This document shows positions 21,258 through 58,288 of a stretch of DNA of 64,000 nt, piece after piece. The DNA lies in NCBI GenBank assembly GCA_017514235.1, contig JAFWKK010000026.1, forward strand, positions 114 to 64,113, read 5' to 3'. Both the position numbers and the translations under genes were made by a program. This DNA is from Kiritimatiellia bacterium (lineage in GTDB: Bacteria > Verrucomicrobiota > Kiritimatiellia > RFP12 > UBA1067). The notes beneath the pieces were generated by a model, which saw only the letters and a program-made list of their open reading frames with translations, was not told where the DNA came from and searched no databases. Position 1 is the stretch's first letter. Each line of letters starts with the position of its first letter.

Positions 21258-23684
21258 CTATTTCACGAAAAGCAGCAATCCGCCGGTGTGTGGATGCAGG
21301 TAGCCGTCCTCGTCTTGATCGACGCGCCTTGCGCCCGTCGGCGCCGCGCTATCCTTCCAGCGGAATAAGTTGCGCTCCTCGTCCGTAAGAGTAGCGTTGA
21401 ACTTGATGACATTGCCTTCCAACGGCGCATCGATCGTGATTGCTTTCGGCTGAAGTCCTTCGCCCGCCGTGAACGACGCGAACGAGAGCGACCCGCCCTC
21501 GCCGACAGTGAGCGTCGCGTTCGTGTTCACCGTGAGCGCGTCAAGCGCGTTGGACTTCCCGTCGGCGACCGCCAGGTTGCCGCCCGCCAGCACGACCGCG
21601 TTCGTCATGCTGTTGCTCGCGCCCAGGATGAACGTGCCGCCGTAAAGACGGGTCTGGCACCGAACGGGCTTGCCACTCCCTGCCAGTTTGAGCGCACCGT
21701 CTCCATACTTCTCGAAATGGTAGTACTCAAATTTTGCAGCAGGCGCCTGGATGCCAGCAAGCGTGCAGTCAACCTGCTCGTCGCCAGTCACATTGTTCAC
21801 ATTGATCTGGAAAGTCCTGGCACTTGAAACGGTTGAGTTTCCGTACGGCCTTATGCCACTTCCCTCAATGCTGGACGGTTCCGAGCCTACCACATTGTAA
21901 TAGTTTATACTAGTGAGAACCGAACGTGGAGCCGTTGAGCCTGAAGTCATACGCGCACCATCCTTCAGCAAGAGATAGTTCAGGTAAATCCCACCACCGC
22001 CAATATGATCCAAGGTGCCTCCATCCACCTCCACCTGTTGAGAACTCGCGATCTGACCATTGTCGTCGCGCCGCAGAATGCCACCGCGCTTGATCTTGAG
22101 CGTACTGGTGCCTCCTGAAATGCCTACACCGACAGTTAACCCGTCAGCACAGAGCTTGACATCCGCGTTGGTAAGCACATTGACGTTGCCGTATGTGGGG
22201 AACGCGGTCGTGGATGTGACGGTCACGTACAACGGCCTTTCACCGCCATCGAACGTCAACTGGTTGCCGACCATGGCGTTCATGGTGCCGTTCAGCGTGA
22301 CGCACCCCATCTTGGACTCGCCTTCAAAGGTCGCGGTAATCATGTGGATGCCATAGCCGCTTGTGCTCGCCGATGTCGCCACATTCCCTGTAAGGGGAAT
22401 CTCCGAGAAATCAGTATTAATCGGATGAGTTGACAACGGCTTGAAGCCTGCGGCGGTCGCCTTGATTTCCACATTCAATCCATTCTGACGGAGCATGGCC
22501 ATCACAACCTTGTTGTTGCTCCCTGCCGCGTACTGGAACTGGCAGGTGGCCGTATCGGTAGCAGAATCATACTTGATATGGTAGGCATCCGTCGGCGTAC
22601 CGCCAACATCGGTATAGTCGGCGTAGTTATGACTTCCGCCCAGCATTCGTCCCGTAAGCGCCGTCAGGGCCGACAGCGAGCGGTTCGTGGCGATGACCTG
22701 CCATGACGTGGTGATCCACGGCTCGAAATAGTAGGAACCCGTATAGGCGGTCGTTGGCGCCATCGGCACGATGCGCACGTCGCCGTCGCCGGTAAAGGTT
22801 TCCGTGATCGTGTTGTCGCCTTCCGGCACAGCCACGACAGCTTCCATGCCGGCGGCGACAGACGTTTCGCCGCCGAGCGTCACGCCGCCATCGAAGCGAA
22901 CGTTCGCCAGCGCGGCCATGCCCTTCTTGGCAGCCATGATCTTCGTCAACCCCCACTCGGAAACCCTGCCGAGCTTTTCGCCGCCATCGGTGATGTTCGC
23001 CACGCACCAATGTCCCTTGTCAGGCCCCTGGACCTTACTGTTCGCCCAAAGGGGTGTCGACGGATAGTAGCCAAAACGCGGCGACCGCGAAATGGTTATG
23101 CAACGGATGCCGCTGGCGCTGATTTGCGGACGGAAGGTATAGGTGTGGTCTGCGGTAATGCGATTGAACGTGAAAATGTTCGATGACGGACCATCTATTA
23201 AACGCTCAATGCGCCCCGGACAGATGTTGCCCGTTGAAACATAAACCACCGAATTTGGCTCAAGATCGGAGGCGACGATAATATTGCCGCCATTATAGAA
23301 GGTGTTTGTCCAAGACTGGTATTGCGCGGCGTACTCCGTGAGAGCCGTATTACTCGTCCAGACAATGTACGCCCCGTCGCTGCGGGAGAGGGTGAGCTTG
23401 CCGAGGGTTGTCACCTTGCTGGCGAAGGAGACCGTGCCGGAGGTGGACAGCGTGATCGCCGCGTCGTCGGCAAAGGTCATCGCGTCGCCCGTGAGCGTGA
23501 TCGTGCCGCCATCCGTCGGAGTCGCCGTCAGCGTCTTGACGTCGGTCGTTCCTTCCTCATAGGTAAGGACCACGGTGCCATCGCCAAGCGACGTATCGCC
23601 CGAGGTGTAAGGGTAGGATCCGTCGGACGCAGAAGCGCAAAGCGCCATCAGCGAGACCGCAACCGGTATGCTTTTGATGTTCAT
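21258..23684 (-). CDS. Large secreted beta-rich surface protein with an autotransporter-associated passenger-type repeat
   Basis: Signal peptide; G/T/S/N-rich; EKYGDGALKLAG repeat; ends HPHTGGLLLFVK; no C-terminal beta-barrel. Confidence 0.65.
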   Translation of the reverse strand: MNIKSIPVAVSLMALCASASDGSYPYTSGDTSLGDGTVVLTYEEGTTDVKTLTATPTDGGTITLTGDAMTFADDAAITLSTSGTVSFASKVTTLGKLTLSRSDGAYIVWTSNTALTEYAAQYQSWTNTFYNGGNIIVASDLEPNSVVYVSTGNICPGRIERLIDGPSSNIFTFNRITADHTYTFRPQISASGIRCITISRSPRFGYYPSTPLWANSKVQGPDKGHWCVANITDGGEKLGRVSEWGLTKIMAAKKGMAALANVRFDGGVTLGGETSVAAGMEAVVAVPEGDNTITETFTGDGDVRIVPMAPTTAYTGSYYFEPWITTSWQVIATNRSLSALTALTGRMLGGSHNYADYTDVGGTPTDAYHIKYDSATDTATCQFQYAAGSNNKVVMAMLRQNGLNVEIKATAAGFKPLSTHPINTDFSEIPLTGNVATSASTSGYGIHMITATFEGESKMGCVTLNGTMNAMVGNQLTFDGGERPLYVTVTSTTAFPTYGNVNVLTNADVKLCADGLTVGVGISGGTSTLKIKRGGILRRDDNGQIASSQQVEVDGGTLDHIGGGGIYLNYLLLKDGARMTSGSTAPRSVLTSINYYNVVGSEPSSIEGSGIRPYGNSTVSSARTFQINVNNVTGDEQVDCTLAGIQAPAAKFEYYHFEKYGDGALKLAGSGKPVRCQTRLYGGTFILGASNSMTNAVVLAGGNLAVADGKSNALDALTVNTNATLTVGEGGSLSFASFTAGEGLQPKAITIDAPLEGNVIKFNATLTDEERNLFRWKDSAAPTGARRVDQDEDGYLHPHTGGLLLFVK

Positions 23685-23700
23685 TTTGCATTCTCCTTCT

Positions 23701-24453: not shown

Positions 24454-24590
24454 GACGGTTCTCCTAGCTTGGACTTTAACAAACAAGCATATTATACAAA
24501 ACCGCCAAAGCCAATGGAATGCTTAAACCGCCAAGAAAACATCATCATTCCGCCAAAGTGAAAACGGCTGTCTTGCCCGGGCGCGGACGC

Positions 24591-25418: not shown

Positions 25419-25545
25419 TCCCTGCCCTCCGTGTGAGGCTTATTATACAACATTCGCATGCCATTGTTCAAGCGGCGCGGCTCATTTCGCATTATGCCGG
25501 CGCATGCAGTTCCCGATCCTTCAGGCGTTCAAAAGGCTGAAGCAA

Positions 25546-34063: not shown

Positions 34064-36343
34064 ATGAGCAGAATCAAGACCTTGTCAGCCTGCGCCGCTG
34101 CCGCGCTGATTTTTGTTTCTTCCACGTTCGGGGAAGATGGCTATATCGAATCGGACGGGACATGTTTCGTAAACACTGGATATTTCATCGGACCTAACAC
34201 ACAGATCGAATTAGACTTCCAGTTGACGGAGATCGTCAGCCAATGTCGCCTTATTGGAATTAAGAGTCCAGCTACCAATGTGACCGATCCCGACAATCCT
34301 CGCTGCGAAGTGTACATTGGTTATGATGGCAATGGGGTGGCGAGATTTTCGCTCAACGGTTCAAAGGCGGATGGAACCCGCCAGGCGGGCAATTATTATC
34401 GCGCTGGTTTGGAGCGACATCTCATACGCATTGATTACCCGGCAAGTTCCGGTCAGTTCAAGGTCTATACGAATGGAAACCTTGTCGATAGCCGGAACTT
34501 ATCGGCATTCCATACCTCCACCGCCAAATACCCGTTGGGACTGTTCGGCGGCAACAATACCGTCTATGGCTCTACGCCGGACTCATACTGGGGCGCGTCA
34601 AAGATGAAGGTGTATCGCCTTAAGATCTACGAATCCGGTAATCTTGTGAGAGATTTTGTGCCTTGCATCAAAGGCGGCGTTCCGGGATTCAAGGTGACCG
34701 GCCCCAGTATGGACACGTTCATCACGGGCGTGGATATAGCCAATGTCAAATATGGTGGCGACATCATGGAAGAGATGGACGATCCTTACATCGCCACTCC
34801 GAACAACGACGTGGTCGCAGGCGCCGAGGCAGGAAAGAGCATCAGCCTGGATACTGGATACTATGTGCAGCCGTATTCTCGCATTGAGCTGGATTTTGCC
34901 CCGCTTACGCCGCGCTGGTCCAAAGATGATCTTTATCCAAACTGCAACTTCATGTGCGCCGAAGGCGGCGGTCATCTTTTGTACCTTCTTGGACGTGCCA
35001 ATCTAACAGAAACCGGCTGCTTCTACTACAAGATTGGAACGCATGAGACGAACATCAAGCGTATCAGTCTTGCCAATGCCTACAACATCCGCCGCATGGT
35101 CGCGTTTGACAGCAACACCGTGTACGTGACCACTGCCGGGTTCACGAACCTCATGGAACATGCCGCTGCCGGGAAGGAGATTGTCAATCCGATGAACTCC
35201 TACACGCTCCATCTCGCCAGTCACGCACGAGCAACGAGTGGTTTCGCGCCTATGAAGATCTACGGACTCAAAATCTACGAACATAATGTGTTGGTAAAGG
35301 ACTACAGGCCAATCGTCACCAACGGTGTGCCGGGGCTTATAGACCAGCTCCATCCAACAGACGTTCGCTTTTCATCCACTTACCTCGGTGGCACTAGGAC
35401 GAATGTAGTGTTTGAGGCGGGAGGGAATTTCACCTGCACGGATGGTTCGAATGAAGCCTATCTTGAATTCGATGGTGTGAGCGGTCATTTGATCAATACG
35501 GGTTATGTCATTACACCGAATTCCTGCATTGAGGCAGACTTTTCTGTTTATAACACGGTATACAATGGCCAGCAGGAATTCTTCAAGCAGGAGTTGTCCA
35601 ACTCAAATCCCAATATCCTTGCGCGTCTCTACATCAACAGTGCCTATACGCTCTCCTATCAGTTTGATGACTATAGTACCTACCAGACCGGCGTCGGCAT
35701 AAATACCCAAATTAGCGCCGCAGATAACAGGCGCAGGCAGTTCAAGCTGGACGGCTACAACAGCCAGGTGACGATCAAGTGTGGTAACGAGACCCTTTTT
35801 GATCAGCCTATGGCACGTGACCACAATAACACCGGGCGCCAACAGGTGTTGAAGATCGGAACGAACCGCGCCCATATGAGGCTGTATAGCTTCAAGATTT
35901 CGGAATCCGGCACGGAGACTCGCAACTTCGTGCCGTGCTTGACGAACGGTGTGGCGGGGCTGTACGAACAGTACACCAAGGTGTTCTACCCGCTGGCGGG
36001 CGGCAAGGTTCGCGGCCTGGGGACGAAGGGCTCAGGTGCGTTCGTCACCGAACCGCAACCCGCAACGCTGACGAGCTCAGGGGTGGCGAACACCACGACG
36101 CTTACCTGTTTCGCGCCCAGCGCGCAGAGCTACGAGTGGTACGAGGACGGTGTTCTCATGCCGGGCGAAACTTCGGATTCGCTGACACTGACGTGGGAAA
36201 AGGCAAAAGCGAAGACGGGCAATCACAGCCATACCTATTCCGTCAAGCCTGTCTACACTGTCTTCAACGAGAAGGTCAAGGGCGATCCAGTGGCCGCGAC
36301 AGTCGAATACACGCCATTCGGCATGGCTGTGAGAATCCGGTAG
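34064..36343 (+). CDS. Secreted surface protein: three LamG-like modules plus a C-terminal Ig-like domain
   Basis: Signal peptide; YIESDG..NTGY / LVRDFVPC..GGVPG repeats; SYEWYEDG Ig-like segment; ends FGMAVRIR. Confidence 0.7.
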   Translation: MSRIKTLSACAAAALIFVSSTFGEDGYIESDGTCFVNTGYFIGPNTQIELDFQLTEIVSQCRLIGIKSPATNVTDPDNPRCEVYIGYDGNGVARFSLNGSKADGTRQAGNYYRAGLERHLIRIDYPASSGQFKVYTNGNLVDSRNLSAFHTSTAKYPLGLFGGNNTVYGSTPDSYWGASKMKVYRLKIYESGNLVRDFVPCIKGGVPGFKVTGPSMDTFITGVDIANVKYGGDIMEEMDDPYIATPNNDVVAGAEAGKSISLDTGYYVQPYSRIELDFAPLTPRWSKDDLYPNCNFMCAEGGGHLLYLLGRANLTETGCFYYKIGTHETNIKRISLANAYNIRRMVAFDSNTVYVTTAGFTNLMEHAAAGKEIVNPMNSYTLHLASHARATSGFAPMKIYGLKIYEHNVLVKDYRPIVTNGVPGLIDQLHPTDVRFSSTYLGGTRTNVVFEAGGNFTCTDGSNEAYLEFDGVSGHLINTGYVITPNSCIEADFSVYNTVYNGQQEFFKQELSNSNPNILARLYINSAYTLSYQFDDYSTYQTGVGINTQISAADNRRRQFKLDGYNSQVTIKCGNETLFDQPMARDHNNTGRQQVLKIGTNRAHMRLYSFKISESGTETRNFVPCLTNGVAGLYEQYTKVFYPLAGGKVRGLGTKGSGAFVTEPQPATLTSSGVANTTTLTCFAPSAQSYEWYEDGVLMPGETSDSLTLTWEKAKAKTGNHSHTYSVKPVYTVFNEKVKGDPVAATVEYTPFGMAVRIR

Positions 36344-38335: not shown

Positions 38336-38369
38336 CATCTTGCTAACAGGAGAACTAGGGAGACAAGAC

Positions 38370-40888: not shown

Positions 40889-40922
40889 CCGAGGGAAGCT
40901 AACCGTAAAAACCGCTGCCGAA

Positions 40923-41819: not shown

Positions 41820-41825
41820 ATCAGA

Positions 41826-44149: not shown

Positions 44150-44155
44150 GGTTTA

Positions 44156-44164
44156 TGGTATAAT
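44156..44164 (+). promoter_or_regulatory. Extended -10 promoter 7 nt before the queF ATG (leaderless-type)
   Basis: TGGTATAAT-CCGCTCC-ATG. Confidence 0.7.
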
Positions 44165-44171
44165 CCGCTCC

Positions 44172-44636: not shown

Positions 44637-44645
44637 GGCCCGCTC

Positions 44646-45680
44646 ATGGGGGATCAGCCGGTGAAGCGTACGCTTGCAGTAGGGCATTTCCTTAATGCGG
44701 ACTTCCAGTCCGCCTGCGCGCCGCACCTGGGGCGGATACGCGAGACTTTCTTCGCCTGGCCGGGCGTCCTGAGCTGCCGCCCCGCGCCGGACTTCACGCC
44801 GGAACTGCGCGCGCGCATGGTCGCCGACCTGGCGTGGGCAAGGGCTAACGGCGTCGAGCTGGACACGCTGTTCAACTGCAACTGCTACGGCGACGCCGCC
44901 ATTTCTCCCGAGCTGGCGGACTTCGTATCCCGCAATCTTCGCGAGATGGATGCGGCGGGGCTTTTCCCTGACACCGTGACAACCACCTCGCCGTTCATAG
45001 CGAAGGTGCTGCGCCGCCGTTTCCCGTCCGTCAAGATACGCCTGAGCGTCAACATCCGCGTCCACGGCACCGTCGGCTTCGAGCCGGTCATGGATCTTTT
45101 CGACTCGTTCTACGCATCGCGCGAACGTCACCGCGAGCTCGACTGGCTCGCCGAACTTTCGCGCTGGGCGAGGGCCAACGGCAAGGTCCTTGGAATGCAG
45201 GCGAACTCCGGCTGCATCAGGCAGTGCGCGTACCAGACGTTCCACGACAACCTGCACGGGCACGGCGACGGGCGCCGTCCGCAGGACGTAGCGACCATGA
45301 AGGACTACGGCTTCACGTTCTTCCTCTGCAAGGAGAACTACGAGCGTGGCCGTTACGAGGATTTCCTGCGCTCGACGTGGATACGTCCGGAAGACCTGCC
45401 GGAGTACGAGGAGCACGTCGACATCGTGAAGCTGGCGACGCGCCGTCATCCGCACCCCGTGGAGGTGTTGAACGCGTATGCGACGTATTCTTACGACGGC
45501 AGCCTTGCCGACCTGATGGATGCCTGCCATGCGCTGCCGAAGTCTTTCGACAACAGGTCGTTCGACGAGAACCTTCCGCTCTGGCGCGCGGTGCGCGGCT
45601 GCCGCGACGCGAACGACTGCCGGCACTGCGGCAGGTGCGCTGCGCTCATGGACGCCGTGTTCCGCGAAAGGGCCTCCTGA
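44646..45680 (+). CDS. U32-peptidase-superfamily-like Fe-S TIM-barrel protein
   Basis: LFNCNCYG, NSGC..QC, FLCK, WIRPED, KLATR and a C-terminal C....C..C..C cluster. Confidence 0.7.
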   Translation: MGDQPVKRTLAVGHFLNADFQSACAPHLGRIRETFFAWPGVLSCRPAPDFTPELRARMVADLAWARANGVELDTLFNCNCYGDAAISPELADFVSRNLREMDAAGLFPDTVTTTSPFIAKVLRRRFPSVKIRLSVNIRVHGTVGFEPVMDLFDSFYASRERHRELDWLAELSRWARANGKVLGMQANSGCIRQCAYQTFHDNLHGHGDGRRPQDVATMKDYGFTFFLCKENYERGRYEDFLRSTWIRPEDLPEYEEHVDIVKLATRRHPHPVEVLNAYATYSYDGSLADLMDACHALPKSFDNRSFDENLPLWRAVRGCRDANDCRHCGRCAALMDAVFRERAS

Positions 45681-45681
45681 C

Positions 45682-46800
45682 ATGGGCAGGGTTCTCGTTC
45701 TCGGCCGCGGTGCGAGCGGCAAGGCCGCCGAGGCGATGTTCCGTGCCGAAGGGCGCGACGTCGACGTTGCAGACGGTTGCGACCTTGTCGTGGCGAGCCC
45801 GGGCATCCGTGTCGTCAGCGAACTGCAGGCCGGCTGCGAGGAGCTGAAGCGGCGCGGCTGGCGGCTTCTCGCAGTCACCGGCTCGAAGGGCAAGTCGAGC
45901 GTCGTCAAGGCCGTCGCGGACGGTCTCCGTCTCGCTGGCGTCAGGGCGGTCGCATGCGGCAACTACGGCACGCCCGTGTGCGAAGTCGCGATGTCCGATG
46001 CGCCGTCCGGTCCGGCGTGGGGAGTTGTCGAGGTGTCCTCGTTCATGATGGAGACGACTTCGCTCGGGCCGGAAGCATTCGAGGCGGCGGCGCTGCTGAA
46101 CCTTCAGGAGGATCATCTTGACCGGCACGGTTCTGCTGCGGCGTACCATTCGCTGAAGCGGCGGCTGCTTTCGATGTCGGCCTGTCCGCGCGACTTCTCC
46201 TCGGTGAGCGCGGATGCCGCGCGCGCCGAGGCCGGGACGCTCTTCGCAGGTTCGTACTTCGACAACGACGTGCTTGCCGCGAACGGGCTGGCCGCCGCGT
46301 GGCTCATGCGCGAGGCGGGCCTTGATGACGCGGCGGTCCGCAGGGCGTTCGCGTCGTTCGAGCCGCTGCCTCACCGCTTTCAGCTTGTCGCCGAGATTGA
46401 CGGCGTTCGGTTCGTCGACGACTCGAAGGCGACGAGCATTGCCGCGCTCGCCGCAGGAGTGACGATGGCGGGCGGCGGAGTGCGCCTGATTGCAGGCGGA
46501 TTGCTCAAGGGCGACGACCCGTCGGCGGCCGAGCCCGTCTTGACAAGACGGGTCAAAAAAGTGTATCTTATCGGCAAAGGCGCGGAAGCGCTTGCGGCGG
46601 CCTGGCGCGGCACTGTGGATTGCGAGATTTGCGGTACGCTGGAAAGGGCAGTTGCGGGCGCGAGACGCGACGCGGCGAGGGGTGAGACGGTTCTGCTGTC
46701 GCCCGGAGCCGCGAGCTTCGACCAGTTTCAAAGTTTCGGGGAACGCGGGGACGTCTTCGCGGGACTCGTCAAAGTCAAGAAAGAAGGAACAGACAAATGA
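45682..46800 (+). CDS. murD: UDP-MurNAc-L-Ala:D-Glu ligase (compact form)
   Basis: VVASPG, AVTGSKGKSS, EVSSF, DHLDRH, LPHR, DDSKAT, LLSPGAASFDQF.SF.ERG..F. Confidence 0.9.
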   Translation: MGRVLVLGRGASGKAAEAMFRAEGRDVDVADGCDLVVASPGIRVVSELQAGCEELKRRGWRLLAVTGSKGKSSVVKAVADGLRLAGVRAVACGNYGTPVCEVAMSDAPSGPAWGVVEVSSFMMETTSLGPEAFEAAALLNLQEDHLDRHGSAAAYHSLKRRLLSMSACPRDFSSVSADAARAEAGTLFAGSYFDNDVLAANGLAAAWLMREAGLDDAAVRRAFASFEPLPHRFQLVAEIDGVRFVDDSKATSIAALAAGVTMAGGGVRLIAGGLLKGDDPSAAEPVLTRRVKKVYLIGKGAEALAAAWRGTVDCEICGTLERAVAGARRDAARGETVLLSPGAASFDQFQSFGERGDVFAGLVKVKKEGTDK

Positions 46801-47867
46801 ACAAGTTCGGAATGGTGATTGGCGTCGCGGCGGTCGCGGCGATTGCCGGCTGCAAGGACCCTGACTACAACCGTGGCGGAAACACTCAGAACGAGCCGAC
46901 TACCATCGGGGAACAGCCGACCCCGGCGGCGGTAACGACGACGCCTAGCGACATCGAGGTGAAAGACGTCCCATTGGCAAGGTGCCGTTGCGCTCCCGGC
47001 ACGCGGCACGCGAAGCCCTGCGCCTGCGGCGCCCCTGACTGCACTTGCATCGTCTCGGCGGCTCCGGTGGCGGCCAAGCCTGTGCCGGCGGCCGTTGCCG
47101 AGCCGGAGACCACGATTTACATCGTCCAGAGCGGCGACTATCTTGCGAAGATATCAAAGAAGTACAACGTCACGATCGCGTCCATCAAGCGGCTGAACCC
47201 GTCCATCGGCGAAAAGAACGTCGTGCGCGTCGGGCAGAAGATAAAGCTTCCAGGCAAGATCGACGTCGGCGTGCAGAAGGAGCCGGTGAAGGCCGCAGCA
47301 GCCAAGCCTGCCAGGAAGCCGTATGCTCCCTATTCGGGCGCCACCAAGGAGTATGTCGTGAAGAACGGCGACACGCTCGGCGCGATAGCCTACGCGAACG
47401 GCATCAGCATCCGCCAGCTCAAGGAGCTTAACGGACTTTCCACTGACATGCTGCGCATCGGCCAGAAGCTGAAGATTCCGGCCGAGAAGGTCGTTGCCGC
47501 CAAGCCGGCCAAGCCCGCTGCCGCTGTTGCGGAGAAGGCCGTTGCGAAGAAGAAGGTTGAGCCGGCCGCGCCTGCTCCTGCCGCTGACTCTGCGTCGGCA
47601 GCCGCTGACTCTGCGTCGGCAGCCGCTGAGCCCGCGCAAGACGTCTCTCCTGCGGCCGAGACGCAGTCTTCTCCCGCCCCTGCGGTTTCCGCTGACGAAG
47701 CCCCCTCGACGACGACATATGTCGTGCAAGAGGGAGATGACATAACCGGCGTGTCCATTCGCTTCGGCGTCTCCGCTGCGGTAATCCGCGAACTCAACAA
47801 TCTCAGCGACAACGATCAGCTCGTTCCCGGGCAGATCATCAAGCTGCCGGCTGACGTGCAGCAGTAA
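46797..47867 (+). CDS. Lipoprotein with three LysM domains
   Basis: Lipobox IAGC; YIVQSGD, YVVKNGD and YVVQEGD repeats; Ala/Pro/Lys-rich linkers. Confidence 0.9.
   Translation: MNKFGMVIGVAAVAAIAGCKDPDYNRGGNTQNEPTTIGEQPTPAAVTTTPSDIEVKDVPLARCRCAPGTRHAKPCACGAPDCTCIVSAAPVAAKPVPAAVAEPETTIYIVQSGDYLAKISKKYNVTIASIKRLNPSIGEKNVVRVGQKIKLPGKIDVGVQKEPVKAAAAKPARKPYAPYSGATKEYVVKNGDTLGAIAYANGISIRQLKELNGLSTDMLRIGQKLKIPAEKVVAAKPAKPAAAVAEKAVAKKKVEPAAPAPAADSASAAADSASAAAEPAQDVSPAAETQSSPAPAVSADEAPSTTTYVVQEGDDITGVSIRFGVSAAVIRELNNLSDNDQLVPGQIIKLPADVQQ
47580..47629 (+). repeat. Perfect 21-bp tandem repeat (about 2.4 copies) in the LysM linker
   Basis: GCCGCTGACTCTGCGTCGGCA twice, then GCCGCTGA. Confidence 0.85.
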
Positions 47868-47873
47868 GGCGAA

Positions 47874-48986
47874 GTGCGCAAGTCCGCACTTCTTGCATTC
47901 GGCCTGGTAGTCACGGCTCTCGTGCTGCTGGGCCTTGTCGTTCTCTCCAGCGCGAGCGAAGCGAACGCCATGCGTTACCATGGCAACGACGCATATTTCT
48001 TCATGCGCCGCCAGTTCGAGTACCTGCTTGCAGGCATCATGGTGGTTGTCGCGGTGTCGTTGTTCGACTATCGCAAGTGGCGCGACTGCGAGTTCCTGAC
48101 ATGGGCGTTCTACGCGGTGGTGCTCGTGCTTCTGGTGGTGGTCCTTCGCGCACGCGCCATCAACGGCTCGCATCGCTGGCTGAGCTTGGGTCGCGTCAGC
48201 CTGCAGCCGAGTGAACTCGCGAAGCTGGTGATCGTAATAGCGCTGGCGGTCTGGCAGGACAAGGCGGGCTACAGGGTCGAGCTGTTCATGCGCGGAGCAT
48301 TCTGGCCGGCGGTGCTGATAGCCGTCCTTGCGGTGCCCATTCTCCTCGAACCGGATTTCGGCTCGGTCATGGTCGTAGGCTCGGTGGGGTTCCTGGTCAT
48401 GTTCGTGTCCGGCACGCGAATCCTGCACATGACGCCGTTTGCGCTTGTCGGCGTCGGCGTAGTGGTCTACAAGGTGCTGACCAACGCGAACCGCGTAGCG
48501 CGCCTCTTCGACGAGCGCGCTCTCTACCAGGTGAACATGGCTCTTGCCGCGATCAGCAACGGCGGGCTGTGGGGCGTCGGACTCGGGAATTCGATGCAGA
48601 AGCAGCTATACCTGCCGGAGGCGCACACGGACTTCGTCTTTGCCGTTGGCGCAGAGGAACTTGGCATCGTGTTTTCCGTCGTCGTCATACTCCTCTTTGC
48701 CGCGTTCTTCGGGCTCTCCGTCTACATCGCGCGACGGGCCAGCGACCGCTTCGGGCGCTTCCTTGTGGTCGGGATGGCCTTCATCATATTCTTTCAGGCG
48801 ATGTTCAACCTTGGCGTCGTCTGCAAGGCCCTGCCGACGAAGGGCATGGCGCTGCCGTTCTTCAGCTACGGCGGCACAAACCTGCTGAGCGCGTTCTTTG
48901 CGGTCGGCACGATCCTTTCCGTGGGCATTCACTCCTACCGTGACCGCAAGCATGCGCTCGGTCGCAAGGTGCTGATGAGGGTCTGA
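47874..48986 (+). CDS. ftsW: SEDS peptidoglycan polymerase FtsW
   Basis: GSHRW, QPSELAK, EPDFGS, YQ...A...GG.WG.G, LPEAHTDF, EELG, LPFFSYGG; position after murD-LysM. Confidence 0.9.
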   Translation: MRKSALLAFGLVVTALVLLGLVVLSSASEANAMRYHGNDAYFFMRRQFEYLLAGIMVVVAVSLFDYRKWRDCEFLTWAFYAVVLVLLVVVLRARAINGSHRWLSLGRVSLQPSELAKLVIVIALAVWQDKAGYRVELFMRGAFWPAVLIAVLAVPILLEPDFGSVMVVGSVGFLVMFVSGTRILHMTPFALVGVGVVVYKVLTNANRVARLFDERALYQVNMALAAISNGGLWGVGLGNSMQKQLYLPEAHTDFVFAVGAEELGIVFSVVVILLFAAFFGLSVYIARRASDRFGRFLVVGMAFIIFFQAMFNLGVVCKALPTKGMALPFFSYGGTNLLSAFFAVGTILSVGIHSYRDRKHALGRKVLMRV

Positions 48987-51855: not shown

Positions 51856-52533
51856 TCAGTCGTACTGTTTCATTTCCTCCTGAACGCGGCGTTTAGTCGC
51901 TTCGTCGGGTGCGACGACGATTCCGCGCAGGCGGTATGGCGCCCAGCCGTTCGTCCATGAGGTGTCTCGGAAGGCTTCTTCGAAGGCGTCCTGGTCGGGC
52001 AGTACGTCGTCCGTCGTGCCGGCGCGGCCGTCCGGGCCCTTCGAGTAGAGGATCGGGTGCCCGCCTTCGGGACGCGTCTCGTAGACGTAGGCGTTGCCCC
52101 ACGGATCGTCCACGATGTGGTTGACGTAAGGACCGTCCCAGCCCTGCTTGCGCCAGGCCTTTGCCGCGAGCGCGTTCAGCCCCTCGGCGGTGGTCGGGTA
52201 GTCGCCGACGTGGAACTTGTACCGCCCCAGCGCGACTGCCAGCGCCCGCATCGACTGTTGCGCCTGCAGCGGCTTGCGCTCGATTCGCGCCTTGTCGAAC
52301 CCTATGCCGTTGCGAGTGGCCGACAGCACCAGCGATCCCGCCACGGCCAGCAGGAGGAACGCAAGGCCGTAGAAGAGCGGGCCCTTGCGCAGCTCTGGCG
52401 CTCCGCCGCCGAGCTCGGCGCGCTTGCGTTCGTATTCGCGGGCTATGGCCTTTACCGCCGCCCTGCTGGACGCCTTGCCGTTCGACGGCCTCTTCGGACG
52501 GAATTTCCTCCTGAGTTCGTTGTAGTCAACCAT
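51856..52533 (-). CDS. GspG/T2SSG-domain membrane protein lacking a canonical prepilin cleavage site
   Basis: L.RYKFHVGDYPTT.EGL.AL, W.GPY, DPWG..YVY, S.GPDG..GT.DD. Basic N-tail then one TM segment without G/F-x-x-x-E. Confidence 0.75.
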   Translation of the reverse strand: MVDYNELRRKFRPKRPSNGKASSRAAVKAIAREYERKRAELGGGAPELRKGPLFYGLAFLLLAVAGSLVLSATRNGIGFDKARIERKPLQAQQSMRALAVALGRYKFHVGDYPTTAEGLNALAAKAWRKQGWDGPYVNHIVDDPWGNAYVYETRPEGGHPILYSKGPDGRAGTTDDVLPDQDAFEEAFRDTSWTNGWAPYRLRGIVVAPDEATKRRVQEEMKQYD

Positions 52534-53048: not shown

Positions 53049-54263
53049 TCATTTGTTGCGGTTTTCGTTTCGATAGGCACGCAGGGTGGTGCCGAACGTG
53101 CGGCGGAAGAGTGCGTTGAGGTGGGTTTGCGCCGGAAAGCCGCAGCGTTCGGCGATTTCGCAGATCGGCAGGTCTGTGTCAGTCAGCATGCGGCAGACTT
53201 CCGCCAGTTTTTGCCGTCGGATGGCCGTTGCCACGCCTTCTTTCCTTACCTTGCCGAATCGCATTTCAAGAAGGTTGCGCGAAATGTGAAGCGCGGCGGC
53301 GAGGCTTTGCACGGTCAGCCCCTTGGGCGAGGGCGGCAGCCCTTGGCAGGCGTGCGAGCGAATGAGCTTTTCGGCGGCGGTGACGAGACGGACCGAACCG
53401 GACAGGTCGCGCGTCGTGTCGCGTTCGGCGATGCGCAGCACCCCGCACGTCAGGTGGTTCTGCGCCCGGCCCGTGACGAGCAGAGACTCCATGCTCTGCG
53501 CAGCGAGCCTGCCGACCCCGAAGAAGTCCGGCTCTATGCTTGTCAGGCGTGGCCAGACGTTGTCGCATATGTCCTCAGAATTGTCAACGCCAACGACCTG
53601 AATCTGCTCAGGGATTCGCAGTTTCGCATAGTTGCAGGCGTCAATTACTTCGCGCGCGACTCGGTCGTTGTAGGCCATGACGCCACATGGGCACGGAAGC
53701 TTGGAAAGCTCTTCGGTGAGCGCTTTCATCGACGCCGCCCAGTCCGCTACCTTGTGTTTCTTGCGCTGACATTCGGTGCAGTCTAAGCCGGCATCCTCGG
53801 CCATGCGCATGAACGTCGCCGCCCGCGCACGCGAGTGGCTGACGTCTTCGTTCGTGGCCGATGGGTGCACGTAGGCAAAGTGTTGGAGACCTCGCTTTGC
53901 CAGCAGACGGAACGCTTCGGCGGCAATCTGAGTGTTGTCGATGCCGACAAACACCGTTCGGCGCGGGAAGCGCATGTTTTCCTTTTTGTCCGGGCTTTCA
54001 AAAGCAATGATGTTCGGAATGCGATCGAAGCGAACATTGCCAATGTAATACGAAGAATTCAGGTAGATGCCGTCGGGTTTCCATCCCAGGACGATCCTGT
54101 TCCACGCTTTGCGGTCTTGTATGTCCCCAGTGGCGAAGAACCGAATGTCCCACGGCAGCGAACGTTCCATGGCATGGCGCATGAAACCCGAACAGCAATC
54201 CCGGAGTGATTTGGGGTTTGACCCTGTGTCAATTGCAATCCTGAATTTCCTTTCGTCGTCCAT
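53049..54263 (-). CDS. XylR-type regulator (LacI-like sensor domain plus C-terminal AraC HTH)
   Basis: VGIDN, GVMAYND, VVGVDN, LTSIEPD, IAERCGF, FRR.FG.T. Start moved to 54263 because TGATATAAT lies 7 nt before it; the ORF-track start is 54296. Confidence 0.9.
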   Translation of the reverse strand: MDDERKFRIAIDTGSNPKSLRDCCSGFMRHAMERSLPWDIRFFATGDIQDRKAWNRIVLGWKPDGIYLNSSYYIGNVRFDRIPNIIAFESPDKKENMRFPRRTVFVGIDNTQIAAEAFRLLAKRGLQHFAYVHPSATNEDVSHSRARAATFMRMAEDAGLDCTECQRKKHKVADWAASMKALTEELSKLPCPCGVMAYNDRVAREVIDACNYAKLRIPEQIQVVGVDNSEDICDNVWPRLTSIEPDFFGVGRLAAQSMESLLVTGRAQNHLTCGVLRIAERDTTRDLSGSVRLVTAAEKLIRSHACQGLPPSPKGLTVQSLAAALHISRNLLEMRFGKVRKEGVATAIRRQKLAEVCRMLTDTDLPICEIAERCGFPAQTHLNALFRRTFGTTLRAYRNENRNK

Positions 54264-54391
54264 GCGTGATATTATATCATATTCAGTCTCGGCCATTTGG
54301 CAAAAACATAACTATTCATATGCGAAAACAGAAATGTGCGATAGATAAATTTGATACAATTTAAACAAACAGAGGGAAGGAACCAAACATT

Positions 54392-57300
54392 ATGAAAAAA
54401 TCGATCCTGTTTGCTATTGCGGCCATGCTTGCTGGCTCAGCAGCGGCGTATAACTACGACCGGCTCCTGGACGCGATCTACGTTCCAGACGGTGTCTACT
54501 TCGACACGCGCTATGTCGTCAGGGATAATCCGCGCGTCGTCGCCAGCATAAGCGTCAGCGAACTGGATTACGACTTTGACCTTTTCGGAGTCAAGCACCG
54601 CAGCGAGGGCTGCTGGATTCTCAACGTTGACGGGACCACGACCGGCGGTTACCAGCCGAGCTTCTACTATCGCTACGGGACGGCTAATAGCGGCGGCGCG
54701 GTCGGCGGCTACTCCGCCCGCCAGCGCCTCGACATCGACTGCGGCAAGACGCTTGTCGTGAACGGATTGGAACTCCAGGCCTTCAACGACTATGACTTTT
54801 CAGAGAACACCACGACGATGACGATTCCCGGAACCGAGGATGCCCATCGGTTCACGCTCATGGCGTTCCAGCTGTGGGACGGCGGAGTCCTCGTGCGCGA
54901 CTTCCTGCCGGCCGAGAAGAACGGCGTCTGCGGACTCTACGACCGCGCGAACGACCAGTTCTACGCGCCGGAATCCGGCACGGTGGAGCCGGCGTACGAC
55001 CAGCTCGTCGATGCCATCCACATTCCGACAGGAGCCTACTTTGAAACAGACTGCGTCGTAAAGGACAATCCGCGCGTCATTGCGGACGTGAGCCCCGACA
55101 CGACCACCGACTTCGACGTGTTCGGAGTCAAGCCCCGCGGCGAAGGCTGCTGGATTCTCAACCTCGATGTGTCCAGCACGTACGGCCCAAGCTTCTATTA
55201 TCGCTACGGCACGGCGTCGCACGGCGGCCCGGTCGGCAATTTCGCCGCCTATCAGCGACTTCTGATCGACTGCGGCAAGACGCTTGTCGTAAACGGAACC
55301 GCGCTTCAGACATTTGGCGACTACGACTTCTCCGGCAACGAATACCAGATGAGGGTTCCCGGCAACGAAGATCCCGGCGCGTGCACGCTCAGGTCGTTCA
55401 AGATCGAGGACGGCGGGCGGCTCGTGCGTGACTTCGTTCCGGCGGTCAAGAACGGCGAATACGGGCTCTACGACCGCATCGCCGGACAGTTCTACACGAA
55501 CGTCGGCACCGGCACGGTAACGGCTGAGCCGTACGACCGGCTTCTGGAGGCGATACACATTCCGAGCGGCACCTATTTCAACACGGGCTGCGTCGTCACC
55601 GACAACCCGCGCGTCATTGCCGACGTGAGCGCAGACACAGAATATGATTTCGACCTTTTCGGCGTCAAGAACCGCAGTGAAGGCTGCTGGATTCTCAATC
55701 TCGACTATTCCCAAGGTCTCGGCCCTCGCTTCTACTACCGCTATGGCACTGCCGCGAACAATGGCGCGGTTGGTGAGTTTGCCGCCGGGCAGCGCATGAC
55801 CATCGAATGCAGCCAATCGCTTGTCGTCAACGGCGAGACCGTTCAGACGGTTAACACCTATGACTTCTCCGACAATGACACGGCAATGACGGTTCCGGGA
55901 ACAGAAGACCCCGGAGCGTGCACGCTTTGGTCGTTCAAGATCGAGAACGGCGGCGAGTATGTGCGTGTATTCATTCCCGCCGAGAAGGACGGCGTCTGCG
56001 GACTCTACGACCGCGTCAATCATCAGTTCTATGCGCCCGCTTCGGGGGAGGTCACGCCTGTCGCAACGGCGTCTCCGACAGAGCTGGCGGTCAAGCGCGG
56101 CGAATTCCCGAATCCGGTCGCCGTCCTTAGCTGGCGCCCCGCCCTTGGCTCGTCGGGAACGTCGATCTTGCGGGGGCCCGGCGCGAACGGGCCGTGGGTG
56201 GAGGTTGCGCAGGTCGGTGAATACGCCGACACATACGTGGATGCGTCCGCCCCAGTCGGCGTACTGTGCCACTACCGCGTCGCCGCGAACTATTCGATAG
56301 GCGGCGATGACGTTTCGCTTACGAACGAGACTTCGGTCGCGTTCCGTCGCTGGCGGCTTCTGGAACGCGATCTTGGTGACTTGGGGCATCTTCGCTCCGG
56401 CGTGAACATCATCTACAACTGCGGAGAGCAAGCCCAGACTCCGGCTTACGAGAACAACAACACGTGGGAGGCCGTCACGAACAGCATCATGCTCGCGTTC
56501 AACAACGTCCTCTACAAGAGCGGGGCCACTAGCGCGGGCCAGATGATGTCAAGCTCCGGATACCCCTACAGCAGGGACTGGGTCGGTATCGCCGACGCTT
56601 CGCCGGACACGTGCATAGGCGTCGATCTTGGCGAGACGGCGCACGTCGCCCACGCGCGATTCTACGCCGTCACGACCGAGTCCGAGGGGACCTGGCGTGT
56701 TACAGGCCTGACGCTTTTCGGGTCGAATGACGCGGACTGGATTCAGGACGGCAACCGCACGGCGCTGACCGAGCCGCTCGTCTGGAACGGCTTCTGCGTC
56801 TGGCATGACAACGACAGCCTCGACACCGCCAACTCGTACCGCTACCTCTACTACACCAATCCCGGCTATCAATGGAGCGGCTACGTATCCGAAATCCAGC
56901 TCTACGGATGGCTTGATTCCGATCTTGCGGAGGTTGCGCAGGCAGTGGAAGACATTGCGGTTTCGTATGGAAGCGGCGCGACGCCGTCCGTGACGCTGAC
57001 ATGGACGCCTGTCGGCTACGGCACGTACACCGTCGAGCGCAAGACGGACGACGGCGCATGGGAGGTCGTGGGCAGCGACATTCCTGCCACATCCGCGTCT
57101 TGGACGGATTCGAGCGTTTCGTCCGGTACTCGCTACACGTATCGCGTTAAGACAATCAACGGCGAAGGCGTGGCGTATTCGGCGGACAGCACGGCACGTC
57201 CGTACCTCGCCGGGAACGGCACGGGGCTTCATGGCGAATGGTGGACCAACTATGTCGCTACGACAGGTGGCGAGGCGTTGGCGCTCGTCACTACGAATGC

Positions 57301-58288
57301 GACGATTGACATTGCGAACGCTTCGGCTGGCGGTGAGACGGAGAACCTTTTCGTCCGCTGGTCAGGCAAGCTGATCGCGCCCTTCGCCGGGGACTATGCG
57401 TTCGACGCGGAAGCCGACGGCGGCATGTATCTCTGGATAGACGGCAATCCTGTTTTGTACCAGGACGTGTCGAGCGGCACAGTCAGTCTGGCTGCTGGAG
57501 AACACGACATCACGGCGACATGGTGCCACAAGAACGGTGCGGGCTTCTGCCGACTCTATTGGGCCGGAAGCGTAGAGCGCGCCATTGTCCCGGCTTCGCA
57601 GCTTGTACCCGTTGCTCCGAGGGCATTGCCAGATGGCTGGGCGAACGCCCGGTCGTTTGATGCCGACGCCAATTCCCCGTTCTCTGGCGACGTCAGGGTG
57701 AACGCCGATGGTTCGCTTGACTTCGCGCAGAGCGGACGCGGTCTTTTCTTTAACATCAGCGGCTACAACTTCCTGTGGCAGCCGATGGAGGGCGACTTCA
57801 TCCTGACGGCCAAGGTGGAGTCGCTTCCTGTCGCCAACCAGTGGCTTTGGCGCAGAGCCGGACTGATGGTGCGCAGCTCGCTCGACGCCACCGCGATGAT
57901 GAACGCATACGGCGTGTATCTGGAGGAAGGCGGCCTTTATGTTGTCGAGAGCCGGCAGAAGACGACGGCGACAGCTACAGAAGGAATAGCCACGCAGGCG
58001 AAAGTCGCCGGTGCGACGCTTGAGTCGTACTCCGCGACTCCAACATGGGTGCGCCTGATCCGCCAGGGCAACAAGTTCACGTGCCTGTACAGGCTCTCGG
58101 CGGCGGGCGAGTGGCTCAAAATCTACGAATACGAGGATGTGAACGGCGAGTACGGCGAAACGGTCTATGCCGGGCTTGCGGCCTGGGGCGACGGCTATGG
58201 TTCAAGCACGGCCATTCCATACTACCTCTGGCGCTTCTCCGGCATTCGTTGCCACGAGGCGAAGGGGACGCTACTCATCCTTCGGTAA
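54392..58288 (+). CDS. Secreted multidomain surface protein: 3 LamG-like repeats, FN3, discoidin(F5/8)-like, FN3, PA14, beta-sandwich
   Basis: Signal peptide; repeats start at 54455, 54995 and 55532; VTLTWTP..Y.VER...YTYRVK (FN3); GLHGEW...RWSGKL.AP..G.Y (PA14); ends KGTLLILR. Confidence 0.75.
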   Translation: MKKSILFAIAAMLAGSAAAYNYDRLLDAIYVPDGVYFDTRYVVRDNPRVVASISVSELDYDFDLFGVKHRSEGCWILNVDGTTTGGYQPSFYYRYGTANSGGAVGGYSARQRLDIDCGKTLVVNGLELQAFNDYDFSENTTTMTIPGTEDAHRFTLMAFQLWDGGVLVRDFLPAEKNGVCGLYDRANDQFYAPESGTVEPAYDQLVDAIHIPTGAYFETDCVVKDNPRVIADVSPDTTTDFDVFGVKPRGEGCWILNLDVSSTYGPSFYYRYGTASHGGPVGNFAAYQRLLIDCGKTLVVNGTALQTFGDYDFSGNEYQMRVPGNEDPGACTLRSFKIEDGGRLVRDFVPAVKNGEYGLYDRIAGQFYTNVGTGTVTAEPYDRLLEAIHIPSGTYFNTGCVVTDNPRVIADVSADTEYDFDLFGVKNRSEGCWILNLDYSQGLGPRFYYRYGTAANNGAVGEFAAGQRMTIECSQSLVVNGETVQTVNTYDFSDNDTAMTVPGTEDPGACTLWSFKIENGGEYVRVFIPAEKDGVCGLYDRVNHQFYAPASGEVTPVATASPTELAVKRGEFPNPVAVLSWRPALGSSGTSILRGPGANGPWVEVAQVGEYADTYVDASAPVGVLCHYRVAANYSIGGDDVSLTNETSVAFRRWRLLERDLGDLGHLRSGVNIIYNCGEQAQTPAYENNNTWEAVTNSIMLAFNNVLYKSGATSAGQMMSSSGYPYSRDWVGIADASPDTCIGVDLGETAHVAHARFYAVTTESEGTWRVTGLTLFGSNDADWIQDGNRTALTEPLVWNGFCVWHDNDSLDTANSYRYLYYTNPGYQWSGYVSEIQLYGWLDSDLAEVAQAVEDIAVSYGSGATPSVTLTWTPVGYGTYTVERKTDDGAWEVVGSDIPATSASWTDSSVSSGTRYTYRVKTINGEGVAYSADSTARPYLAGNGTGLHGEWWTNYVATTGGEALALVTTNATIDIANASAGGETENLFVRWSGKLIAPFAGDYAFDAEADGGMYLWIDGNPVLYQDVSSGTVSLAAGEHDITATWCHKNGAGFCRLYWAGSVERAIVPASQLVPVAPRALPDGWANARSFDADANSPFSGDVRVNADGSLDFAQSGRGLFFNISGYNFLWQPMEGDFILTAKVESLPVANQWLWRRAGLMVRSSLDATAMMNAYGVYLEEGGLYVVESRQKTTATATEGIATQAKVAGATLESYSATPTWVRLIRQGNKFTCLYRLSAAGEWLKIYEYEDVNGEYGETVYAGLAAWGDGYGSSTAIPYYLWRFSGIRCHEAKGTLLILR

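Follow-up and report, generated by a model that had tools for sequence, protein, structure and literature searches.

Described C-terminal signals

C-terminal sorting signals define the surface proteins of a diderm bacterium. To our knowledge, each signal of this kind found so far (LPXTG, PEP-CTERM and the T9SS CTD) has led to a dedicated machine. The PEP-CTERM type consists of a signature tripeptide, a TM helix and a basic cluster, and classical autotransporters (T5aSS) end in a 12-stranded translocator barrel. Dockerins are folded calcium-binding modules of ~70 residues that are found mainly on enzymes. T9SS depends on a folded Ig-like CTD with seven strands and about 70-90 residues, whose C-terminus can be extended and whose hydrophobic last strand closes with Gln or a basic residue, as in KLIKK (PMC11285876). 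The OMP β-signal, read by BamA/BamD, follows the consensus ζ-x-G-x-x-[aromatic/hydrophobic]-x-[aromatic/hydrophobic], and short C-terminal peptides of lectin-domain proteins can β-augment strand 1 of BamA (bioRxiv 10.64898/2026.09.25.754295).

The DNA analyzed here is a 64,000-nucleotide stretch (the window) from an uncultured Kiritimatiellae bacterium of gut/rumen origin. One heptapeptide tail terminates hundreds of exported proteins of sugar-binding type in uncultured Kiritimatiellae from gut and rumen, and four of these carriers are encoded in the window (Table 1). The tail looks like an undescribed address or docking tag that resembles the signal read by the outer-membrane barrel-assembly machine. 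A description of it was not found in the literature on Kiritimatiell- (word stem) sorting, T9SS, PEP-CTERM, RFP12 and secretion.

Table 1 Features of the window. aa, amino acids.
Feature	Position	Strand	Basis
Left-edge protein, four LamG-like repeats, incomplete in window	1..2794 (reading frame given as 2-2794)	minus	translation
Two paralogous exported ~300-aa proteins without tail, directly downstream of the 808-aa gene	19370..21237	minus
808-aa exported protein: signal peptide, β-helix-like body, tail	21258..23684	minus	translation, AlphaFold model
Tail GLLLFVK and stop codon	21258..21281	minus	translation
759-aa exported protein: signal peptide, three LamG/LNS jelly-roll domains, one Ig-like domain, tail	34064..36343	plus
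Tail GMAVRIR and stop codon	36320..36343	plus	translation
AraC-type sugar-responsive regulator (Peripla_BP_3 + HTH_18), in divergent orientation to the 1298-aa gene	53049..54296	minus
1298-aa exported protein: three LamG-like repeats, fn3, discoidin-like region, PA14, C-terminal jelly-roll, tail	54392..58288	plus
Tail GTLLILR and stop codon	58265..58288	plus	translation

Carrier proteins

A first-pass annotation had proposed that three otherwise different, exported, β-rich proteins share a tail, and translation of all three confirms it. The 808-aa protein ends in HTGGLLLFVK, the 759-aa protein in TPFGMAVRIR and the 1298-aa protein in EAKGTLLILR, each followed by a stop codon. The left-edge protein was predicted to carry the tail past the window edge. 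Its last 10 residues, including the tail GLMLSIR, do fall outside the window, and the full 941-aa gene in two other assemblies of the same genome (L005:2512-5337 and L006:2509-5334) ends in IRNGLMLSIR and a stop codon. The last 150 residues of the four carriers have no significant mutual similarity (E > 0.3). Over its entire length, the 808-aa protein is unrelated to the remaining carriers. Pfam and NCBIfam scans of the four carriers returned PA14 and fn3 matches only, with no sorting-domain model and no match to the TIGR04183/PF18962 CTD (about 70-100 residues) among them; the discoidin-like region of the 1298-aa protein is assigned from F5/8 type C Pfam matches in homologues only. We did not detect a C-terminal TM helix (the last 40 residues of each carrier lack a hydrophobic 15-mer), a usable lipobox [LVI][ASTVI][GAS]C at the signal-peptide end (Cys is absent or out of context, and is not conserved among homologues) or a β-barrel in the two AlphaFold models (759-aa and 808-aa). 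The models, the hydrophobicity scan and the N-termini agree with the earlier view that the carriers have no barrel, no PEP-CTERM TM helix and no lipobox.

In the AlphaFold model of the 808-aa protein (pLDDT 90), residues 799-808 have no secondary structure, residues 805-808 fall below pLDDT 50, and the chain ends 10 residues past the last strand. Foldseek returned weak matches of this model to tailspikes, depolymerases and autotransporter passengers. In the 759-aa model, LamG/LNS jelly rolls are combined with an Ig-like last domain whose last strand is formed by residues 743-749; the tail lies beyond it without secondary structure, and residues 756-759 are below pLDDT 50. Two confident models with different folds thus both predict that the tail is a free, unstructured extension past the last domain.

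Sequence and distribution of the tail

The tail consists of Gly, two variable residues, a hydrophobic, a variable and a hydrophobic residue and then Arg, Lys or Gln, with the consensus G(-7) T/M/L V/T/I/A I/L/V x I/V R>K>Q(-1) across families. It ends at the stop codon in every case, and the distance from Gly to the terminus is fixed at seven residues. Gly is the most conserved position (99 of 105 and 52 of 59 distinct tails in two sets) and is replaced by Ala in one subfamily. Positions -4 and -2 are strictly hydrophobic (I/V/L), and -3 is free. R, K or Q closes ~94% of the 759-family tails and ~80% of the 808-family tails, with Gln accepted in about 20%. Pro is frequent 2-4 residues upstream among the homologues. 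The motif noted earlier, Gly plus about five mostly hydrophobic residues and a basic end, is real, with refinements at the last residue, at -3 and at the Gly itself. Tail codons are variable and each of the three stop codons occurs, which places selection on the peptide; the same variability rules out a DNA-level element (terminator, RBS or other conserved nucleotide element) as the cause of the tail. Position preferences are alike in two unrelated families, and the tail recurs in a third. The tail sequence is selected at the protein level, independently of protein family.

The tail is kept to about 37-45% identity in three families with unrelated C-terminal regions. The 759-aa family is the largest (11,053 clusters at 50% identity; at least 120 homologues among the matches listed). 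Sixty-nine homologues of the 808-aa protein keep the tail, homologues of the C-terminal half of the 1298-aa protein keep it after a conserved YYLWRFS..TPKG motif, and it is present in 105 of the 135 additional representatives of 50%-identity clusters. The flanking DNA of related loci encodes more unrelated carriers, including proteins of 103 and 117 aa. Carrier genes are clustered, with several carriers per locus. Genes and signal peptides were called by simple heuristics, and this crude test found a signal peptide in 27 of 31 carriers, the others being truncated or mis-started. The domains on carriers are LamG, PA14, discoidin, PKD, legume-lectin-like and β-helix. Some relatives combine an N-terminal ECF sigma or anti-sigma module with the rest in a single ORF. 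PEP-CTERM (VPEPS...TM...RTRR) takes the place of the tail in P0265, a distant PA14 relative from elsewhere.

Enrichment at C-termini

A strict regular expression for the tail matched the three carriers only among 563 stop-to-stop ORFs of the window (≥60 aa, all six frames). A position matrix was trained on homologues of the 759-aa protein and used with a cut-off of 8 bits. Internal 7-mers scoring ≥8 bits have a frequency of 3.2e-4, and ~0.016 such tails are expected by chance among the ~50 C-termini of the window, where three plus that of the edge protein were observed. Chance is excluded as an explanation of the window tails. Of 347 C-termini, 35 reach the cut-off, an enrichment that is biased outside the window because the related loci were picked by homology to one carrier family. 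All non-carrier genes of the window score ≤0; among them are GH20, GH39, GH5, esterase and phosphatase genes with signal peptides. The secreted hydrolases of the window thus lack the tail, as first proposed, and no glycoside hydrolase with a tail occurs in the sample.

Gene neighborhood

Clustering of 364 genes, drawn from the window plus 32 related loci, identified AraC-type regulators, GH20 enzymes, transporters and the ~300-aa accessory protein as recurrent neighbors of tail genes, and three further long-contig neighborhoods contain the same set. The AraC-type regulator is the commonest (21 members in 16 loci). The accessory proteins have no Pfam match, and one relative, in P0174, forms a fusion with an 808-type tail protein. 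No outer-membrane or protease partner was found among the 364 genes. A Pfam search for a partner among ten unannotated window genes returned nothing informative, and an exact-sequence look-up of the window's 1428-aa protein returned no record. No sortase-like, C25-like or exosortase-like gene was found in ~0.6 Mb of flanking DNA, and the T9SS core (SprA/Sov, PorV, PorU, PorK-N) is absent from the Pfam lists for these scattered loci. The sample contains no OMP genes for comparison with a native β-signal. The tail loosely recalls the prepilin motif G|FTLIE, and a T2SSG-domain gene lies at 51856-52533; a pseudopilin was rejected because this gene is without a prepilin motif and the flanks hold no pilin-like gene.

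Comparison with described systems

No known sorting family fits the tail: the T9SS CTD, PEP-CTERM, the lipobox and the autotransporter barrel all fail. The type A CTD of T9SS (TIGR04183, 'motif C-t.') is likewise a C-terminal signal on Sec-exported surface proteins and has a similar last-strand ending. In contrast to that folded domain, the tail is a stretch of seven shared unstructured residues that follows unrelated domains and runs right up to the stop codon. An Ig-like last domain occurs in the 759-aa family alone, and the tail there lies beyond the last strand. T9SS belongs to Bacteroidota, whereas the tail lineage is PVC. The likeness to the last strand of the T9SS CTD drawn in the first-pass annotation holds as a concept, but there is neither a shared CTD fold nor a Bacteroidota-type context, and the OMP β-signal is closer. 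PEP-CTERM/exosortase, GlyGly-CTERM and LPXTG signals occur on the same kinds of cargo, the LamG, PA14 and β-helix repeat proteins of PVC bacteria; the tail has none of the PEP-CTERM elements and is far too short for a membrane span. A passenger-like β-helix is present in the 808-aa model, but the autotransporter barrel is absent. The cohesin-dockerin system also places a common C-terminal element on many extracellular glycan-related proteins, but the tail is seven residues long and enzymes are without it.

The tail follows the G-x-x-[aromatic/hydrophobic]-x-[aromatic/hydrophobic] register of the OMP β-signal. In the β-signal the second residue of the pair is C-terminal and the pair is aromatic, whereas the pair of the tail is Ile/Val/Leu and is followed by Arg/Lys/Gln. 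The β-signal is the last strand of a transmembrane β-barrel; the carriers are modeled as soluble, multi-domain proteins with no barrel. Among mimics of the β-signal, darobactin has seven residues, the same length as the tail. The lectin-like Llp bacteriocins, whose C-terminal peptides are mimics too, also bear a free peptide after lectin-type domains, but their domains are MMBL β-lectins and those of the carriers are LamG/LNS in the model, with no B_lectin Pfam match. The Llp peptide has two residues after the pair with an aromatic or His cap, compared to one residue in the tail, and Llp proteins are toxins whereas carriers are self proteins in glycan loci.

Proposed function

The explanation that we favor has, as a whole, an even chance of being right. 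It holds that G-x-x-Φ-x-Φ-[R/K/Q]-COOH serves gut and rumen Kiritimatiellae as a lineage-specific C-terminal tag that sorts or tethers its cargo via a common receptor, and that the cargo consists of predicted Sec-exported, non-catalytic, lectin-like or adhesin-like proteins. Carriers would be exported by their signal peptides and fold in the periplasm. The tail would then pair in trans with the receptor as an edge β-strand (β-augmentation), its hydrophobic face (positions -6, -4 and -2) buried and the register fixed by the terminal carboxylate and the Arg/Lys/Gln side chain. Docking may sort or anchor the cargo at the outer membrane or cell surface, and the glycans bound by the displayed carriers would serve the hydrolases and transporters encoded next to them, with AraC-type control. 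For the receptor, the first but speculative candidate is an Omp85-family lateral gate (BamA/TamA/TpsB-like), because the tail sequence reproduces the OMP β-signal core with one extra polar residue. Against this BAM-type reading, the tail has an aliphatic instead of an aromatic hydrophobic pair and a polar last residue; against the tag itself, the conserved neighbors are regulators and glycan enzymes, with no receptor or machine among them. The first proposal of a terminal β-strand read by a dedicated machine is consistent with the alike preferences, the protein-level selection and the free tail, but the translocon, protease or anchor that it called for was not identified. A broader version is possible but doubtful: an unrecognized Kiritimatiellae sorting system in which the tag would pass lectin-like proteins, once folded, to an outer-membrane machine, either Omp85-type or wholly new, that displays them on the surface, replacing PEP-CTERM/T9SS-type signals.

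An unlikely alternative is that the tail is a donor strand or mini-dockerin that fits a groove in a scaffold or another carrier and assembles a multi-protein glycan-binding surface complex or fiber, resembling cohesin-dockerin pairing or pilus strand exchange. A free, β-prone, amphipathic tail on many different cargoes, the clustering of several carrier genes per locus and the accessory fusion in P0174 suit such an assembly, but no repeated acceptor module or scaffold gene was recognized, six residues are short for a stable donor strand, and enzymes, the usual cellulosome cargo, lack the tail.

We give still less weight to a cleavable propeptide, with a periplasmic or outer-membrane transpeptidase that would cut at or near the Gly and link the new C-terminus to lipid, LPS or peptidoglycan, much like PorU in T9SS, sortases or the GPI omega-site. 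The replacement of Gly by Ala in one subfamily, the lack of sortase-, C25- or exosortase-like genes in ~0.6 Mb of flanking DNA and the longer or TM-bearing signals of known transpeptidases weigh against the conserved Gly at its fixed distance, the upstream Pro and the use of PEP-CTERM on the same protein types elsewhere (P0265).

It is improbable that the tail is a degron or signaling ligand for a periplasmic PDZ protease (Prc/CtpA or DegS-like) that controls turnover or reports export state to ECF sigma factors. Its placement at the very C-terminus matches that of PDZ and tail-specific protease ligands, and the genetic link to ECF sigma/anti-sigma modules is recurrent, even within one ORF. 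However, known PDZ/Prc ligands end in hydrophobic or aromatic residues and not Arg/Lys/Gln, and a degron has no obvious rationale on thousands of abundant structural proteins while being absent from co-expressed enzymes.

Llp-like protein antibiotics that bring a β-signal-mimicking C-terminal peptide to BamA of competitors are very hard to credit: lectin domains do precede a short free peptide with a Φ-x-Φ pair, but at least four carriers lie within 64 kb, one family alone has the thousands of clusters noted above, the loci are sugar-regulated and used for glycan utilization, and the carriers have Sec signal peptides, lectin folds of LamG and not MMBL type, and no immunity genes. A chance resemblance, or the ordinary last strand of a shared C-terminal domain, can be virtually dismissed, since β-strand-like heptamers are common within proteins but the C-terminal enrichment, the non-homologous final 150 residues and the position of the tail beyond the last folded strand in both models oppose it.

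If the tag reading is true, the tail would be the shortest C-terminal sorting signal known, with no membrane segment and no folded domain. Its sequence overlaps the barrel-assembly-machine code and therefore bears on the reuse of Omp85-type gates or other receptors for soluble cargo. It provides a one-line rule to predict which surface proteins bind glycans in an abundant uncultured lineage of the herbivore gut, a starting point for phylogenetic profiling toward the machine and a candidate 7-residue display tag. The relatives fused to sigma or anti-sigma modules would, if translated whole, be tethered to the inner membrane, a point against the tag. If the unrecognized sorting system exists, docking of these relatives could link the binding of glycans at the surface to a membrane-tethered ECF sigma factor.

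The tail is shared by otherwise dissimilar C-termini

Translation of the three genes named in the first-pass annotation returned the C-termini reported there (see the table), each closing at the stop codon with the heptapeptide G-x-x-Phi-x-Phi-[R/K/Q], here called the tail. The same ending had been forecast for the protein cut by the window start. The whole 941-aa gene, found in two other assemblies of the same genome, ends in GPDGALIRNGLMLSIR before its stop; the tail lies ten residues past the window edge and the forecast was therefore correct. Of the 563 stop-to-stop ORFs with 60 aa or more in the six frames of the window, just these three end in the strict pattern. The last 150 residues of the four tail-bearing proteins (carriers) have no detectable mutual similarity (E > 0.3), and the heptapeptide is therefore their sole shared C-terminal element. 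No part of the 808-aa protein is related to the 759-aa, 1298-aa and left-edge proteins, which have LamG-like repeats in common in their N-terminal parts. A position matrix for the tail was trained on homologues of the 759-aa protein and applied with a threshold of 8 bits or more. This score was reached by 35 of 347 C-termini in the window and in related loci chosen by homology to one carrier family, compared to 3.2e-4 of 161,502 internal 7-mers. Within the window, scores above zero were confined to the three tail proteins. These data exclude that the tail arose by chance.

Coordinates of the carriers and of other features
Feature	Location	Strand	Remark
808-aa carrier	window 21258-23684	minus	C-terminus HTGGLLLFVK (translation)
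759-aa carrier	window 34064-36343	plus	C-terminus TPFGMAVRIR (translation)
1298-aa carrier	window 54392-58288	plus	C-terminus EAKGTLLILR (translation)
Left-edge carrier, cut	window 2-2794	minus	C-terminus outside window (translation)
Left-edge carrier, whole 941-aa gene	L005:2512-5337, L006:2509-5334		other assemblies, same genome
LamG-like repeat units	window 34064-36343, 1-2794, 54392-56000		
AraC-type regulator, periplasmic-binding-protein fold	window 53049-54296		
Paralogous ~300-aa exported proteins	window 19370-20290, 20332-21237	minus, minus	ending ITRY/HxxFRxxxKR
T2SSG-domain protein	window 51856-52533	minus	
704-aa signal-peptide protein	window 59837-61951	plus	C-terminus SRGVDLSCK
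1428-aa signal-peptide protein	window 2845-7131	minus	C-terminus PPGDIRRRHR
MmeI-family enzyme	window 7458-10226	plus	complete
Intervening-sequence-type protein	window 10229-11032	plus	
Region of ~64% G+C	window 38000-48500		
Sigma-fused ORF	L014:1497-4301		ribosome-binding site and ATG at ~2020-2037, AAAGGAGAtacgatcATG

Breadth and level of conservation

Homologue searches confirmed the motif and generalized it. Every named homologue and genome record belongs to metagenome-assembled Kiritimatiellae, recovered from guts such as those of goat, roe deer and cattle, a lineage that older records name Verrucomicrobia or Lentisphaerae. Among the 120 homologues listed for the 759-aa family (down to 39% identity), nearly all end P-x-G-h-h-h-x-h-[R/K/Q]. 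In the 808-aa family, 69 homologues (down to 37% identity) finish with QD..GYLHP-x(2-3)-G-x-x-h-x-h-[R/K/Q, rarely Y/H/N]. The C-terminal half of the 1298-aa protein has about 65 full-length homologues, which finish with YYLWRFS.V....PKG-x-x-h-x-h-R. Position preferences agree between the 759-aa and 808-aa families: G at -7; T>M>L at -6; V/T/I/A at -5; I>L/V at -4; anything (S, I, V, F, R) at -3; I>V at -2; and R>K>Q at -1. A search with a profile among 1.84 billion representatives (E up to 0.001) placed 11,053 clusters at 50% identity in the LamG-repeat family, and 105 of its 135 new best representatives have a tail of 6 bits or more; those that do not score are mostly fragments or members of an Ala-for-Gly subfamily (SAFVLIVR). 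The repeat unit itself spans ~200-230 aa, has the terminal motif LVRDF.PC.K.G..GLYD, and has no model in Pfam or NCBIfam. Flanking DNA encodes unrelated carriers, namely a Laminin_G_3+PKD protein, a legume-lectin-like protein, and proteins of 688, 1130 and 658 aa, together with minimal carriers of 103 and 117 aa, in which the signal peptide, one small domain and the tail account for nearly the whole chain.

At the DNA level, 36 tails use varied synonymous codons, including four Gly codons and CGG, CGC, CGT or AGG for Arg, and are followed by TAG, TGA or TAA and then by unrelated downstream sequence. These features rule out a nucleotide element behind the tail. The comparison shows a family-independent peptide at the exact C-terminus, selected at the protein level, and the conserved object is a peptide with a free carboxylate end. 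The isolated exception among the 759-aa homologues is P0007 (NCBI MAG protein IKE55_04095), whose tail GMVFMVR continues into an 18-residue read-through that begins WRRGAAAARKFGIIRT. It is either a natural stop-loss or an assembly error, and could serve as a natural experiment on whether the tail has to stand at the very end.

Structure models

AlphaFold2 models built with family alignments were confident. The 759-aa model (pLDDT 88, pTM 0.87) consists of three LamG/LNS jelly rolls and one Ig-like domain, with Foldseek matches to neurexin and laminin LG domains (E down to 3e-12). Its final strand spans residues 743-749, and the tail has no secondary structure, with pLDDT below 50 at 756-759. 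The 808-aa model (pLDDT 90, pTM 0.89) is beta-helix-like and weakly matches a Bifidobacterium alpha-galactosidase, phage depolymerases, tailspikes and autotransporter passengers; residues 799-808 are unstructured and pLDDT is below 50 at 805-808. The N-terminal 18-22 residues are disordered in both. Modeled without structure in two unrelated folds, the tail is thus a free extension, as expected of a linear motif read in trans. It is beta-branched and alternately hydrophobic at -6, -4 and -2, a composition typical for an edge strand that buries one face.

Export and gene neighborhood

Every carrier with a complete N-terminus has an n-h-c signal peptide with an AxA-type site. As the first-pass annotation stated for its three proteins, the carriers have no beta-barrel (808-aa model), no C-terminal TM helix, and no conserved lipobox at the N-termini of the four window proteins and the homologues of three families. 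Their domains are LamG, PA14, F5/8 type C, fn3, PKD, lectin-like and beta-helix, with no catalytic Pfam domain in any of them. The genes are surrounded by GH20, GH39, GH5, GH28, esterase, sugar-transporter and sugar-isomerase genes in what look like polysaccharide-utilization loci, and the commonest neighbor is the AraC-type regulator (21 copies in 16 loci). By sequence, the carriers are predicted to be Sec-exported lectin-like proteins of glycan loci. The annotation had also noted that the secreted hydrolases lack the tail, and it is absent from every same-operon enzyme with a signal peptide. The tail therefore divides two classes of exported proteins. This split is the strongest argument, albeit indirect, that the tail specifies location or assembly.

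Two paralogous exported proteins of ~300 aa, which have no Pfam match, are encoded directly after the 808-aa gene, and in several loci relatives are likewise found after tail genes. P0174 joins such a protein to the N-terminus of an 808-type tail protein, and this suggests that the two are functionally linked. A T2SSG-domain (pseudopilin-like) protein combines a long, basic N-terminal region with a TM segment and lacks the canonical G|FTLIE prepilin motif; its gene has the AraC regulator on one side and an SSF transporter on the other.

Comparison with known signals

PEP-CTERM-type signals require a TM helix, which the carriers lack. A distant PA14 relative from another organism, P0265, ends in PEP-CTERM, so the tail fills a place held elsewhere by that signal. 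The modeled 808-aa body resembles an autotransporter passenger but has no barrel. The T9SS CTD, to which the tail had been likened, needs a folded Ig-like domain, has a conserved Lys on its final strand, and tolerates extension of its C-terminus (PMC11285876); none of these features holds for the tail. The closest sequence analogue is the OMP beta-signal, zeta-x-G-x-x-[aromatic/hydrophobic]-x-[aromatic/hydrophobic] (bioRxiv 10.64898/2026.09.25.754295), of which the tail has the exact G-x-x-Phi-x-Phi plus one extra R/K/Q. By analogy the tail may work like a BAM substrate signal; as such a signal proper it was rejected, the barrel being absent, the hydrophobic pair aliphatic and the terminus polar. 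According to a 2026 preprint, the beta-augmentation of BamA strand 1 by lectin-like bacteriocins depends on a short, free peptide at their C-terminus that carries such a hydrophobic pair, and it resembles that by darobactin (bioRxiv 10.64898/2026.09.25.754295); thus a peptide of the size and pattern of the tail suffices to dock on an Omp85 lateral gate. No description of the tail was found in the literature searched or in the curated family libraries Pfam and NCBIfam. The tail would belong with C-terminal sorting or docking signals, and there is a real chance that it marks a new system.

Possible mechanisms

The tail would be recognized in trans via beta-augmentation, and the carrier would consequently be sorted or tethered to the outer membrane or cell surface. 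The receptor might be an Omp85-family protein, the weakest step of this proposal. The earlier reading, a short terminal strand recognized by a dedicated export or anchoring machine, is plausible and partly supported. It is consistent with the like position preferences of unrelated families, the selection at the protein level and the free tail in two folds. The scattered readable loci contain no plausible partner. Cleavage at the Gly with covalent attachment fits the same data, as does donor-strand or docking assembly of a surface complex. At least 10 listed relatives of the 759-aa protein and five further profile-search representatives are single ORFs (P0021, P0022, P0030, P0032, P0036, P0100, P0106, P0114, P0118, P0120, P0308, P0372, P0384, P0398 and P0399). 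At their start is a module of ECF sigma (Sigma70_r2/r4) or anti-sigma zinc-finger type with a TM helix, followed by a Ser/Thr/Pro/Glu-rich linker. The stop-free frame next crosses an apparently intact Shine-Dalgarno-like ribosome-binding site, an ATG and the whole of a signal peptide before it enters a tail-bearing LamG protein. These ORFs may give two products; the alternative is an unusual sigma architecture tethered to the membrane. Were the ORFs translated as one piece, the tail would have to act on an inner-membrane-tethered protein, which would favor docking over release. A PDZ-protease ligand tied to ECF sigma signaling fits the same data as well. In view of their copy number, loci and fold, the carriers are very unlikely to act as Llp-like antibiotics.

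Other genes of the window

The 704-aa signal-peptide protein has no Pfam match and is probably not a carrier, since its C-terminus has the loose G-x5-K without the hydrophobic positions and scores below 0 on the matrix. The 1428-aa signal-peptide protein, also without a Pfam match, has a basic end that is not the tail; its exact sequence is absent from the records, and versions of 1428/1429 aa occupy the same position in other assemblies. The MmeI-family type IIL restriction-modification enzyme has all five MmeI Pfam domains and is followed by a relative of the 23S rRNA intervening-sequence protein (four-helix bundle), a pair that forms an insertion amid glycan-utilization genes. The G+C content of the window is ~60%. 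In the G+C-richer region, long spurious ORFs overlap real genes on the opposite strand, and several genes are therefore misassigned by simple longest-ORF calling.
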